Program-made: the position numbers and the translations under genes
Shown: one piece after another, positions 22,667 to 27,928 of the stretch
Layout: each line of letters starts with the position of its first letter
How positions within the stretch are numbered: position 1 is the stretch's first letter
The notes under the pieces: model-generated
The model's input: only the letters and a program-made list of their open reading frames with translations
Told to the model about the DNA's origin: nothing
Databases searched by the model: none
NCBI GenBank assembly: GCA_965231145.1
Contig: OZ246420.1
Span: 1,020,001 to 1,052,000, forward strand
DNA length: 32,000 nt
Direction of reading: 5' to 3'
DNA from: Candidatus Saccharimonadota bacterium
GTDB taxonomy: Bacteria > Patescibacteriota > Gracilibacteria > Absconditabacterales > Absconditicoccaceae

Positions 22667-22896
22667 ATATATAGTATAGCGTTCACCATTCCACATGTCA
22701 AAAAAATAATATACAGAAAAAACCTGCCAGTTGATAGCAGGTCTTATCCATTCTATTTCATAGAAATGAACATTCAGCAATAGTATAGCAAAGAGGTAAG
22801 CCAGAATAGGTTTTACGAAGTAGAAATGATTCTACTCGTGGTTGGTTATATATTTTTTCAATATTTATATCAATCTACTACGATTGATTACTCTTG

Positions 22897-24388
22897 TTAG
22901 GATAGTGGTCCATCCCCACGTTCCCGTAGGGATACCTTGTTACGACTTCACCCCAGTCATCGATTCCCTTTTCAACCCGCAAAGCGGATCTTCAAAGAGC
23001 CTCAACTCCCATGGTGTGACGGGCGGTGAGTGCAAGGAACAGGGACATATTCACGGCAGCATGGCTGATCTGCCATTACTAGCAATTCCAACTTCATGTA
23101 GTCGAGTTGCAGACTACAATCCGAACTGAGGGGTGATTTGGAGTTTTGCTCTACCTCGCGGCTTCGCTTCTCATTGTGCACCCCATTGTATGATCTATGA
23201 CGCCCTAAGCATAAGGGGCATGAGGATCTGACGTCATCCTCTCCTTCCTCCTGGTTGCCCAGGCAGTTTCTCTAGACACTGTAACTAGAGATGAGGGTTG
23301 CGCTCGTTTCTAGACTTAACTAGATACCTTGCGGCACGAGCTGACGACGACCATGCACCACCTGTGTACCCCGCGTATTGCTACGCTAACCATGTTTCCA
23401 TGATGACAAAGTACATGTCAAACTTAGGTAAGGTTCTTGGCTTATTATCCAATTAATCTAGATCATCCACTGCTTGTGTGTTCCCCCGCCTATTCCTTTG
23501 AGTTTCGGTCTTGCGACTATACTACCCAGGCGACTCGCTTAACCCGTTAGGTTACAGTACCCAGCCCGAAGGCTCAGACACTTAGCGAGCATAGTTTACA
23601 GTTTGGACTACCGGGGTATCTAATCCCGTTTGCTACCCAAACTTTCGTCTCTCACTGTCAAGATATTCATAGTAAGCTGCTTTCGCTTTTGGCATTCCTT
23701 CCGATATCAACGAATTTCACCTCTCCACCGGAAATTCTACTTACCCCTGAAAACTTCCAGACTCGTAGTATCCACTCCCTTTCCTCGGTTAAGCCGAGGT
23801 ATTTGAAAGTAGACTTTCGAGACCAGCTACAGACTCTTTACGCCCAGTAATTCCGGATAACGCTTGGGACCTACGTATTACCGCGGCTGCTGGCACGTAG
23901 TTAGCCGTCCCTTATTCGTGGGGTACCGTCATTCGTCTTCCCCCAAAAAAGAAGTTTACACACCGTAATGCTTCATCCTTCACGCAGAATCGCTGGTTCA
24001 GACTTTCGTCCATTGACCAATATTCCCCACTGCTGCCCCCCGTAGGGGTATGGACCGTGTCTCAGTTCCATTGCGGCCGGACATCCTCTCAGACCGGCTA
24101 CCCGTCATAGGCTTGGTGGGCTATTACCCCGCCAACTACCTGGTAGGCCGCACCCCCCTCCTAGAGCGAAAAAACGTTTCTCCTACATATTTTCATTTTG
24201 TAGGACGTATCGAGATTTAGCTACGTCTCCGTAGTTGTTCTCGTCTCCAGGGCAGGTTAAGTACGTGTTACTCGCCCGTTTGCCACTAATTTCATCGAGT
24301 ATTGCTACCCAAAGAAATCCGTTCGACTTGCATGTGTTAGGCGTTCTGCTAGCGTTCATCCTGAGCCAGGATCAAACTCTTCATAAAA
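22897..24388 (-). rRNA. rrs: 16S ribosomal RNA (~1.49 kb)
   Basis: Reverse complements of AGAGTTTGATCCTGGCTCAG (24361..24380), GTGCCAGCAGCCGCGGTAA (23878..23896) and AAGTCGTAACAAGGTA (22933..22948) are present. Ends are estimated by alignment to the E. coli termini from memory. Confidence 0.93.
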
Positions 24389-24454
24389 AAATCCTGGCTT
24401 AACCTCTTTGCTATGCTATCAACTGTGAATGTTCATGTGGTAGAACCATATCTA

Positions 24455-24580
24455 CCAAAGGTGGCATCAATCTACTTTCCCAGGACCATTGATCCCAGTA
24501 TCATTGACCACTAGAGGCTTAACTACTGTGTTCGGAATGGGAACAGGTGTTTCCCTCTGATGCATCGATACCACCATTGG
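24455..24580 (-). rRNA. rrf: 5S ribosomal RNA (ends approximate)
   Basis: Reverse complement contains CCCATTCCGAACACAGTAGTTAAGC and GGGAAAGTAG. Terminal helix I pairs ccaatggtgg.atcga with ttgatgccacctttgg. Confidence 0.85.
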
Positions 24581-24631
24581 TAGATAGAGCGTTTCCATCT
24601 CGAGACAAATATATCATATTTTTAAAAGAAC

Positions 24632-27580
24632 AACAAGCCCCTCGATCTATTAGTACACCTTTGCTCAAAACATTGCTGTCCTTACACATAGTGCCTATCA
24701 ACCCCATAGTCTCTGGGGGATCTTACCTCCGTATTGCTACGGAGTGGGTAATCTAATCTTATGGCTAGTTTCCCACTTAGATGCTTTCAGCGGTTACCTT
24801 TACCGAGCGTAGCTACCCAGCTGTGCCGATGGTTCGACAACTGGTTCACCAGGGGCTCGTTCATTCCGGTCCTCTCGTACTAGGAACGACGCCATTCAAA
24901 TTACCTACGGTTACAGTAGATAGGGGCCGAACTGTCTCACGACGTTCTGAACCCAACTCGCGTCCCGCTTTAATGGGCGAACAGCCCAACCCTTGGGACC
25001 TTCTACAGCCCCAGGATGCGACGAGTCGACATCGAGGTGCCAAACGGAGTCGTCGATATGGACTCTTGGACTCCATTAGCCTGTTATCCCCGGAGTAGCT
25101 TTTATCCGTTGAGCGGATTCCCTTCCACGTGGAAAATCCGGATCACTTTCGCCTAGTTTCCTATCTGTTCGACCTGTTAGTCTGACAGTTAAGCTTGCTT
25201 GTGTGAATATACTTTCTATACGGTTTCCATCCGTACTAAGCAAACCTTTGCACGCCTCCGTTACTTTTTAGGAGGCACCCGCCCCAGGTAAACTGTCCAC
25301 CTGGCATTGTCCCCCATTTCATGGGGTTAGTAACGCTACATAAACTGAGTGGTATCTCATTGTTGACTCCACTTACCCAAAGGCAAGCTTCAAAGTCTCC
25401 CACTTATGCTGAGCAGTTTATGCCACGTTACAGTACCAAGCTACAGTAAAGCTTCACAGGGTCTTTCCGTCTAGCTGTAACTACCTGGCATTTTTACCAG
25501 GATTGTAATTTCACCGAGTCCGAGATTAAGACAGTGTGGAGATGGTTATGCCATTCATGCGGGTCGGAACTTACCCGACAAGGAATTTCGCTACCTTAGG
25601 ACCGTCATAGTTACGGCCGTCGTTAACTAGTGCTTAAATCACGAGCTTGCACAAGCGATCTTAACATTCTAGCACTGGACAGGCATCACCTCATATACAT
25701 CCACTTACGTGTTAGCATGAAGCTGTGTTTTTGGTAAACAGTCCCCCCCACGACTTTAACTGCGGCCCCATATTGCTATGGGGCAGGGTTTATCCCGAAG
25801 TTACACCCGTTAATTTGCCAAGTTCCTTAATCACCGGTTTTCTCGATTGCCTTGGTATTCTCTACCAACCTACTTGTGTCAGTTCTCAGTACGGGCTGCG
25901 TTCAGATTAGCGCTAGTAGGTTTTCTTGACACCAGAATGTTACAAATTCTGCCTTGCGGCAGTTTCTCTATAGCTCGACGTTTTATCTCATGACGGATTT
26001 ACCTACCACGAGCATACTGACTTACGCCAGATTTGCCTTACTACTGAGACTCGAATCCTTATCAAGCTTGTACTTATCCCGATGCGTCACTACATCACTC
26101 TGAAGCAGGGGCCGGAATATTAACCGGCTATCCATCGACTTCCCCTTTCAGGTTTGCCTTAGGTCCCGCCTAACCCTACGTTGATGAACATTGCGTAGGA
26201 ATCCTTAGGTTTTCGGCATATAAAATTTTCATTTATAGTCGTTACTTATGTCAGCATTTTTACTTCTATACAGTCCACCACACGCTTACGCGGCAGCTTC
26301 AGCCCATATAGAACACTCTCCTACCGCACTCTAGATAAATCTAGAGGCTTCCGACGTCGGCAAATAGCTTGAGCCCCGTTACATCTTCGGCGCACTCCCG
26401 CTTGTCTAGTGAGCTGTTACGCTTTCTTTAAAGGATTGCTGCTTCTGAGCAAACCTCCTAGATGTCTTAGCAGGAATACATCCTTTTCCACTTAGCTATT
26501 ATTTGGGGGCCTTAGTCGGGAATCTGGGCTGTTACCCTTTTGGCCACGAAACTTAGCTCCCGTAGCCTAACTCCATCATTTTCCTTACAGCATTCGAAGT
26601 TTAACAGGGTTTGGTAAGACCTCTCGATCCCCCTAGCCCTACAAGAGCTCTACCTCTGTAAGATCATTATGACAGGCTAACCCTAAAGTTATTTCGGAGA
26701 GAACCAGCTATCACGTTATTCGATGAGCTTTTCACTCCTAGGCACAAGTCATCCAAAGGACTTGCAGCTCCAACTGGTTCGGACCTCCAGGCCAGTTTCC
26801 TGACCCTTCATCCTGCTCATGCCTAGCTCATAACGCTTCGGGTCTAATGGCAGCAACTGAACGCCCTATTCAGACTCGCTTTCGCTCCGGCTCCGGCTAT
26901 AACTACCTTAACCTTGCTACTACCATTAACTCGCTGACCCATTCGTCAATAGGTACGTGGTCACCCGGCCGAAACCGAGCTCCCACTCAATTGTGAGCAA
27001 TACATTTCAGGTTCTATTTCACTCCCCTTCCTGGGGTTCTTTTCACCGTTCCCTCACGGTACTATGCACTATCGGTGTAGAAAAGTATTTAGCCTTACCC
27101 AGTGGTCTGGGTGGATTCACACAAGATTTCACGTGTCTCATGCTACTCGGGAGTATACGACAGAGACAATATGTTTTCGTTTACGGGACTATAACCCTCT
27201 ATGGCGACGCTTTTCAACGTCTTCTTCTAACATACTGTTTTGTAACTCTGCACACCACTTCTAGATGATGTATGCATATCCCAACAACCCTCTCTCTAGC
27301 AACGACTAGAATCTTGACACTAGAGGAGTTTAGGCTCATTCCCGTTCGATCGTCTCTACTGAGGAAATCTCTTACGATTTCTTTTCCTCGTGGTACTGAG
27401 ATATTTCACTTCCCACGCTTGCCGTTCTTTGACACTCCGTTGTACGGAGTAGGTTTCCCCATTCGGACATCCACGACTATAACGGTTACTGGCACCTCAT
27501 CGTGGCTTTTCGCAGCCAATCACGTCCTTCTTCGGCTTTTCTACCCAAGGCATCCATGTATTGCTCTTAATAGACTTGTC
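24632..27580 (-). rRNA. rrl: 23S ribosomal RNA (~2.95 kb, no obvious large insertion)
   Basis: Reverse complement carries the sarcin-ricin loop AGTACGAGAGGACCGG (24866..24881), a GGATGCCTTGGG 5' region (about 27545..27560) and GCTGAAAGCATCTAAG (about 24779..24794). It is bracketed by a near-perfect 29-30 nt inverted repeat (24602..24631 and 27581..27609). Confidence 0.93.
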
Positions 27581-27928
27581 GTCTTTTAAAAATATGATAT
27601 ATCTGTCTGTTAATGGTCCACTTTCTGCTCGAGGCAGTGGTGAAAAAGATATAGAAGTTAGAAGCTATTGCAAGTGATTTTTTGACTTTTTACATACCAC
27701 GTAAACTGAATTGGTAACTAGGCGTTCGCATTCTGACCATACATTTGTCAAAAGAATGTTGATAAAAAGTGCTCAAGAACTGTCTTTTTCGTAGCAAAAT
27801 TTTTCATTTTTCTTTATTACTCATTTCCTTCGTATACTATTCGCAATAAAACCTTGCTTCGCTCCTCTATTTTCGTACAACACATGCATCTCGTCTCATT
27901 ATTTATTATCTTGTATTATGTCAAATAC

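Follow-up and report, generated by a model that had tools for sequence, protein, structure and literature searches.

Known arrangements of bacterial rRNA genes

The canonical bacterial ribosomal RNA (rRNA) operon (rrn), exemplified by E. coli rrnB, is arranged as 16S-[transfer RNA (tRNA)]-23S-5S. In Thermus, Helicobacter, Planctomycetes and many symbionts, the rRNA genes are unlinked, with the 16S gene located apart from the 23S-5S pair. The locus described here lies in a 32-kb stretch of DNA, the whole of which was analysed (hereafter the window), and carries the genes in the order 23S-5S-16S on one strand; it very probably represents a genuine and apparently functional rRNA operon with permuted gene order, expressed as a single transcript. 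Like the canonical operon, it has flanking helices around the 16S and 23S rRNAs, apparently one promoter region and one terminator, and possibly a boxA-like motif before each large rRNA. However, it is circularly permuted, with 23S first and 16S last, it lacks spacer tRNAs, and its leader is very short, the 23S stem following ~30 nt after the predicted start. With unlinked rRNA genes it shares the departure from 16S-23S-5S and the retained 23S-5S pair, but whereas unlinked loci have other genes or more than ~1.5 kb between 16S and 23S, only 241 nt separate the 23S 3' end from the 16S 5' end in the window, and the 5S gene is the sole gene inside. Because the 16S gene follows the 5S gene after 71 nt, with no promoter, terminator or gene found between them, the rRNA genes of the window are linked.

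The order itself was reported in 2014 for the SR1-OR1/MEGHA, RAAC1 and ACD80 genomes of SR1 (Candidatus Absconditabacteria), after a failed 16S-to-23S polymerase chain reaction (PCR) on SR1 had led to inspection of the three SR1 genomes then available (Camanocha & Dewhirst, PMC4192840). A full-text literature search for '23S-5S-16S' returned this one paper; alternative spellings of the order returned nothing, and Absconditabacteria combined with rRNA operon returned nothing relevant. The headline is therefore already known. The SR1 operon of that paper (PMC4192840) resembles the window in its identical order on one strand, its tight linkage and a host that reads UGA as glycine. The window is nevertheless not RAAC1, given a guanine-plus-cytosine (GC) content of ~0.39 compared with 0.31 for RAAC1, and its 16S mismatches oral-SR1 primers. 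The main text of the 2014 paper (PMC4192840) gives the order only, whereas the helices, the operon boundaries and conservation down to 83% 16S identity come from the present analysis. These additions are modest. They consist of the helix around every rRNA, the limits of the operon, the absence of a promoter inside it, persistence of the arrangement in a distant relative and a missing anti-Shine-Dalgarno (anti-SD) sequence.

Gene order at the locus

Rfam covariance models placed the three rRNA genes on the minus strand in the transcription order 23S - 53 nt - 5S - 71 nt - 16S. Together with two flanking genes, they are as follows.

27929..29122, plus strand: divergent group-1 glycosyltransferase gene, upstream of 23S (Pfam PF00534, PF13692)
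24629..27581, minus strand: 23S rRNA gene, full length (Rfam RF02541, 2515.9 bits, model positions 1-2925)
24459..24575, minus strand: 5S rRNA gene (Rfam RF00001, 82.3 bits, model positions 1-120)
22898..24387, minus strand: 16S rRNA gene, full length (Rfam RF00177, 1372.6 bits, model positions 1-1533)
21995..22666, minus strand: orphan gene between the PrsW-like gene and the rRNA terminator

An earlier note on this DNA had described a 23S-5S-16S order on the minus strand, tRNA-free spacers and a glycosyltransferase gene diverging upstream of 23S with no 16S on that side, and all of this holds. Its coordinates lie within 1-5 nt of the Rfam ends, and the 5S gene had been called a few nt too long at each end; the 5S-16S spacer is indeed short, but measures 71 nt rather than ~65 nt. 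Neither ARAGORN nor Rfam detected a tRNA in the rRNA locus (22.7-27.9 kb, both spacers included), and the six tRNAs that they identified in the window are all located at 2.7-7.4 kb. Rfam found no further rRNA copy within the 32 kb, which contain one 23S, one 5S and one 16S gene. The side upstream of 23S is occupied by the divergent glycosyltransferase gene (Pfam PF00534) in place of a 16S gene, and downstream of 16S follow, in order, a terminator, the orphan gene and a gene for a PrsW-like membrane protease.

Conservation of the order in relatives

Related loci were sought with a junction pattern consisting of a degenerate 5S core motif, a gap of 41-115 nt and the 16S 5' end. Among 185,579 GTDB species, each represented by one genome, this short-gap pattern occurred at two loci, both from close relatives of the window, which makes the order very unusual, although relatives such as L010, whose gap is 162 nt, escape these scans. 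JGI metagenomes yielded four loci. Three of the six junction loci (L001, L002 and L003) belong to relatives with 95-96.5% 16S identity; the order 23S-5S-16S is seen directly in L001 and L003, whereas L002 ends just upstream of the 5S gene, and the same contig, as L009, shows the full operon. Further relatives were obtained through homologues of the PrsW-like protein and through a spurious open reading frame (ORF) called inside the 16S gene of code-25 genomes. L007 contains a partial 23S, then 5S, then 16S, and L009 has the gene neighbourhood of the window from the type II secretion system (T2SS) ATPase through the Mur ligase. The most distant relative, L010, whose 16S is 83% identical to that of the window, likewise carries the 23S 3' end, then 5S, then 16S, all on a single strand.

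The comparison with related genomes suggested in the earlier note thus gave the same order in five other assemblies, namely L001, L003, L007 and L009 (95-97% 16S identity) and L010 (83%), and the same glycosyltransferase gene lies upstream of 23S in L001, L003 and L009. Including the window, there are six independent assemblies with this order, drawn from NCBI, JGI and ENA. The permuted order is a property of the lineage rather than of any one assembly. Other candidate relatives were rejected: the order in L011 is canonical (16S-tRNA-23S), and L012 and L013, lower-scoring matches to the 16S pseudo-ORF, resemble unrelated code-11 bacteria.

Processing helices around each rRNA

Long helices formed by the flanks of an rRNA are standard substrates of double-strand-specific ribonucleases (RNases), with RNase III acting on 16S and 23S. 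In the window, each of the three rRNAs is bracketed by such complementary flanks, for which the following features were predicted.

27582..27608, minus strand: 23S processing helix, 5' strand (inverted repeat I1; RNAalifold; duplex energy)
24603..24629, minus strand: 23S processing helix, 3' strand (inverted repeat; RNAalifold; duplex energy)
24576..24586, minus strand: helix extending 5S helix I, 5' strand, ATCTACCAA (inverted repeat I3; RNAalifold)
24449..24458, minus strand: 5S flanking helix, 3' strand (inverted repeat; RNAalifold)
24391..24436, minus strand: 16S processing helix, 5' strand (RNAalifold); contains the second copy, GAACATTCACAG (24434..24423), of a motif treated below
22766..22807, minus strand: 16S processing helix, 3' strand (RNAalifold, inverted repeat, duplex energy)
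22816..22837, minus strand: small conserved hairpin in the 16S 3' trailer, GAGTAGAA-TCAT-TTCTACTT (RNAalifold columns 156-175)

Separate processing stems for 23S and 16S had been proposed in the earlier note, and repeat finding, RNAalifold and shuffled controls agree with this. The near-perfect repeat of 29-30 nt described around 23S was recovered by the repeat finder as 27-nt arms (24603-24629 and 27582-27608) with 96% complementarity, and the imperfect repeat of ~45 nt around 16S as an 18-nt core (22780-22797 and 24402-24419) with 94% complementarity, which RNAalifold extends to 39 pairs between 24436..24391 and 22807..22766. The 5' strand of the 16S helix stops 4 nt short of the mature 5' end, and its 3' strand starts ~90 nt past the mature 3' end. 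The repeat finder also identified a bracket around 5S that the earlier note had not mentioned (24449-24471 and 24564-24586), which consists of 5S helix I plus a flank of ~10 bp.

The energy of each flank duplex was compared with that of 500 dinucleotide-preserving shuffles, none of which (0/500 for each of 23S, 5S and 16S) matched the observed value. The flank duplexes reached -48.4 kcal/mol for 23S (shuffle mean -17.0, z = -8.9), -19.9 kcal/mol for 5S (shuffle mean -7.9, z = -5.1) and -53.8 kcal/mol for 16S (shuffle mean -21.7, z = -8.9).

Compensatory changes between relatives support the 23S and 16S helices predicted from these alignments. RNAalifold predicted 36 helix pairs in the 23S flanks of four genomes, two of them with compensatory double changes, and in the 16S flanks of five genomes 5 of the 39 pairs had changed on both sides with pairing kept; for example, GAGGT.AAGCC/GGCTTACCTC in the window corresponds to GAGACT.AGTC/GACTAGTCTC in L003, L007 and L009. 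For 5S, 13 pairs beyond helix I were predicted across five genomes, and the changes are mainly one-sided with G-U intermediates. Direct reading of the flank strands gives ACCTACCAA/TTGGTAGGT for L001 and ATCTACCAA/TTGGTAGAT for the window. In L010, the 16S flanks are unrelated in sequence to those of the window and pair again, at -60 kcal/mol, with a perfect duplex core of TATGATGTTTACTGAGAGACAAAG and CTTTGTCTCTCAGTAAACATCATA; its 5S flanks likewise pair in sequence unrelated to the window. What is conserved in the flanking helices is therefore their structure rather than their sequence, an argument for a role in processing.

Predicted boundaries of the transcription unit

The elements found at the two ends of the locus are listed below.

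27646..27673, minus strand: candidate operon promoter, -35 TTGCAA (27673..27668), 16-nt spacer, -10 TATCTT (27651..27646) (four-genome alignment)
27607..27618, minus strand: conserved motif GACCATTAACAG, boxA-like, just 5' of the 23S stem (pattern count)
22713..22745, minus strand: intrinsic operon terminator, hairpin 22745..22719 followed by T6 (terminator scan; five-genome conservation)
22673..22701, minus strand: promoter of the next gene, TTGACA-17-TATACT (consensus scan, 11/12 matches)

In the four aligned genomes, the -35 hexamer of the candidate promoter reads TTGCAA, TTGCAT, TTGAAA and TTGAAA, and the -10 hexamer TATCTT, TATCTT, TATCCT and TATACT, while the 16 nt between them show no conservation. 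Real promoters usually combine constrained hexamers with an unconstrained spacer in this way, and the TTGCAA-16-TATCTT element, which has an A-rich UP-like tract just upstream of its -35 (about 27700..27676), probably serves as the promoter of the operon. A second promoter considered at TTGACA (~27752) was rejected: relatives have TTCACA there, with no properly spaced -10.

At the other end, the hairpin at 22745..22719 is the sole minus-strand terminator-like site within 22400..28400 and lies ~20 nt past the 16S 3' stem strand. It is kept in five genomes, with one stem position occurring as U-A, C-G or A-U (three-way covariation), and the L010 operon also ends with a hairpin plus T7. The promoter of the next gene lies directly beyond this terminator, 6 nt before the ATG at 22666 as counted from its -10 hexamer, and marks the end of the rRNA transcription unit.

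Between these boundaries, the 71-nt spacer from 5S to 16S comprises ~10 nt of 5S stem strand and 46 nt of 16S stem strand. The scan detected no minus-strand promoter match in it and no terminator between 5S and 16S. With a promoter-like element before 23S, a terminator after 16S and nothing between them, a single 23S-5S-16S primary transcript is the best-supported arrangement, and it is one that we infer from the sequence.

In an alternative arrangement, 23S-5S would be transcribed from the upstream promoter and 16S from a promoter of its own, located in the spacer or in the 5S gene. Room for regulatory signals could exist in relatives, where the spacer holds a variable, non-conserved insert of 14-28 extra nt that forms small hairpins, and in L010 reaches 162 nt (~90 nt extra). 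These hairpins, however, are without T-runs, and there is therefore no terminator after 5S; moreover, the spacer in the window is nearly all stem strands, and the alignment of relatives contains no conserved -35/-10 pair. Two transcription units consequently appear improbable, and on the question that the earlier note had left open, the comparative evidence favours predicted co-transcription over a separate 16S promoter.

Several observations weigh against the single-transcript operon as described here. The candidate promoter scores 8/12 against the consensus, which is under the scan threshold, and co-transcription is itself predicted from sequence features. A conserved block at ~27765..27720, upstream of the candidate promoter, is not accounted for. 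In addition, the window carries no gene for a processing nuclease, no search aimed at such genes having been made, and the choice between SR1 proper and a neighbouring code-25 lineage for the host draws on primer matches only. The conserved block, located in the divergent intergenic region, reads TCAACATTCTTTT[G/C]ACAA..ATGGTCAGAA..CGA.CG (27720..27765, minus strand) and occurs in 4/4 aligned genomes; it may be bound by a regulator or act as promoter for the glycosyltransferase gene.

In canonical operons, boxA precedes both large rRNAs. The pattern GAMCATTMAYAG is found at exactly two sites in the window, both on the minus strand, compared with 0.04 expected by chance: at 27607..27618 before the 23S helix and at 24423..24434 within the 16S 5' strand. 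L001, L003 and L009 carry it at both corresponding positions. As the pattern was derived from these same sequences, the count is circular and provides only a lead, and the loose likeness of GAMCATTMAYAG to boxA is offered purely as a hypothesis. The rRNA leader of L009 (promoter to 23S stem) contains an insertion of ~110 nt (~16290..16400) that is lacking in the window and carries TTTCTTTAACGAG, which is closer to the boxA consensus.

Assembly artefact or tandem operons as improbable alternatives

Assembly errors at the 5S/16S boundary, whether by a chimeric join or by collapse or wrap-around of a tandem repeat, could also place 5S before 16S, and such artefacts do exist, as metagenome contigs L004-L006 have a 5S abutting a 16S. 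In the window, however, unique protein-coding sequence borders the locus on either side, and the 5' strand of the 16S stem, next to 5S, pairs with sequence downstream of 16S in a helix with compensatory changes between genomes, which a chimeric join would not give. The order is further shared by six independent assemblies, four of them with the same flanking genes; misassembly is thereby excluded for practical purposes, and we consider an artefact exceedingly improbable. The even weaker idea of a junction between two tandem canonical operons, in which the 23S-5S of one copy precedes the 16S of the next and which would likewise show 5S then 16S, has next to no standing, given the divergent glycosyltransferase gene and no 16S upstream of 23S, the terminator, orphan gene and PrsW-like gene and no 23S downstream of 16S, and the single copy of each rRNA in 32 kb (Rfam), in line with what the earlier note had concluded.

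L004-L006 are operon-length metagenome contigs of unrelated bacteria in which 5S directly precedes 16S. L005 and L006 contain a canonical operon with further rRNA copies flanking it, and L004 is a 1.1-kb fragment. All three appear to stem from tandem copies or from wrap-around by the assembler, and such contigs give rise to false 'permuted operon' calls.

Proposed expression and origin of the permuted operon

For the permuted operon, we propose that RNA polymerase starts at the sigma-70-type promoter ~40 nt upstream of the 23S 5' stem strand, transcribes 23S, 5S and 16S as one precursor and stops at the intrinsic terminator ~20 nt past the 16S 3' stem strand. Each rRNA would be excised separately through its own flank helix, of 27-36 bp for 23S and ~39 bp for 16S, and 5S through a helix of ~10-13 bp beyond helix I; RNase III may process 16S and 23S, and an RNase M5- or Mini-III-type enzyme is possible. 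The 23S helix would close once 23S has been transcribed, the 5S helix soon after, and the 16S helix only after the last ~130 nt of the operon have been made. Because the 16S helix would close last, the large-subunit RNA would be released first and 16S last, reversing the canonical timing, while synthesis of the three rRNAs at 1:1:1 would be kept.

In the simplest origin of the order, a canonical operon would have been duplicated in tandem, after which the first 16S and the last 23S-5S were lost and a promoter was recruited upstream of 23S. Such an origin is plausible, and no intermediate of it was seen among the loci compared. Transcription as a single unit, the nucleases involved and the way in which the order arose are all matters that we infer.

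Genetic code and affiliation of the host

The organism reads UGA as glycine (genetic code 25). With TGA as a sense codon, ORFs in the window amount to 57 kb instead of 20 kb, and all of the aligned in-frame TGA codons (6/6) of the PilB-like ATPase coincide with Gly in PilB proteins of solved structure, among them the invariant G of the GEIRD and TGHLV motifs. A corresponding tRNA is encoded in the window.

7289..7362, minus strand: 74-nt tRNA with anticodon UCA (ARAGORN, labelled tRNA-SeC)

Its acceptor stem has G1:C72, C2:G71 and G3:C70 together with U73, which are glycine identity elements, and despite the tRNA-SeC label, it is the tRNA-Gly(UCA) of code 25.

Genetic code 25 is known from SR1/Absconditabacteria and Gracilibacteria. 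The 16S of the window has one mismatch to the SR1 primer AF31-X1, three to the SR1 primer AF32 and three to the GN02 primer AF29, suggesting an SR1-like organism outside the oral lineage. Fluorescence in situ hybridization (FISH) probes for the JAEDAM01 metagenome-assembled genome (MAG) HHAS10 showed no fit to this 16S when compared by eye.

Anti-SD loss and gene starts

The 3' tail of the window 16S (22898..22907) reads CACUAUCCUA, compared with CACCUCCUUA in E. coli, and lacks the anti-SD core CCUCC. L001, L003, L007, L009 and L010 lack it as well, with tails such as CACUUUCCUA in L009 and UUAUCCUA in L010. Gene starts were compared with control ATGs for 22 window genes, the starts having been picked by eye. 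GGAG, GAGG or AGGA was found at -20..-4 of none of these starts (0/22), compared with 10% of control ATGs, and G makes up only 10% of the bases in this upstream interval. A variant SD matching the altered 16S tail (GGAUAG-like) was not enriched (1/22 compared with 4% of controls). A TANNNT hexamer, by contrast with its frequency of 14% in controls, lies 4-9 nt before the ATG at 8 of the 22 starts (p = 0.007); example starts are at 22666, 16647, 14287 and 17686 on the minus strand and 4758 on the plus strand. The sequence of the tail and of the gene starts suggests SD-independent, partly leaderless initiation. A 2022 survey reported anti-SD loss in a Parcubacteria subgroup and loss of bS21 in Absconditabacteria and Gracilibacteria; on the present clade, its main text says nothing about loss of the anti-SD.

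Implications

Organisms with this gene order would be overlooked by common approaches: 16S-to-23S PCR and typing based on the internal transcribed spacer (ITS) fail on them, long-read rRNA-operon amplicon surveys miss them, and pipelines that expect 23S downstream of 16S would wrongly call the locus 'unlinked'. The locus also constitutes a natural experiment, in which co-transcription and processing through flank helices appear to tolerate a circular permutation of gene order.

A broader and more tentative reading, which we hold to be doubtful, is that the permuted order reaches beyond the three published SR1 genomes, dates far back and is fixed in a broader code-25 lineage, and that it accompanies SD-less initiation, with both ribosome biogenesis and translation initiation rewired. 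The order spans at least 83-97% 16S identity. If this reading were true, the order would have been kept together with three independent helices for processing, two copies of a boxA-like motif and one promoter with one terminator, and would go along with anti-SD loss and SD-less, partly leaderless mRNAs. Neither link, to ribosome biogenesis or to translation initiation, was found described in the literature searched.

Neighbouring genes

Where the window has its orphan gene, between the PrsW-like gene and the terminator of the rRNA operon, each relative has a different orphan gene (L009, 10828..11301; L007, 4712..5206), and tblastn detected no similarity among these genes of the window and its relatives. 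For a spurious ORF antisense to 23S (24781..25098), no matching product is on record. Elsewhere, the window carries a type IV pilus/T2SS-like cluster (8378..12321 and 17762..18961 on the minus strand, 29194..30622 on the plus strand), whose members include a GspF-like protein, the PilB-like ATPase and a protein that resembles pilins and carries an N-terminal methylation motif. The T4SS_pilin family is matched by two proteins adjoining the glycosyltransferase.

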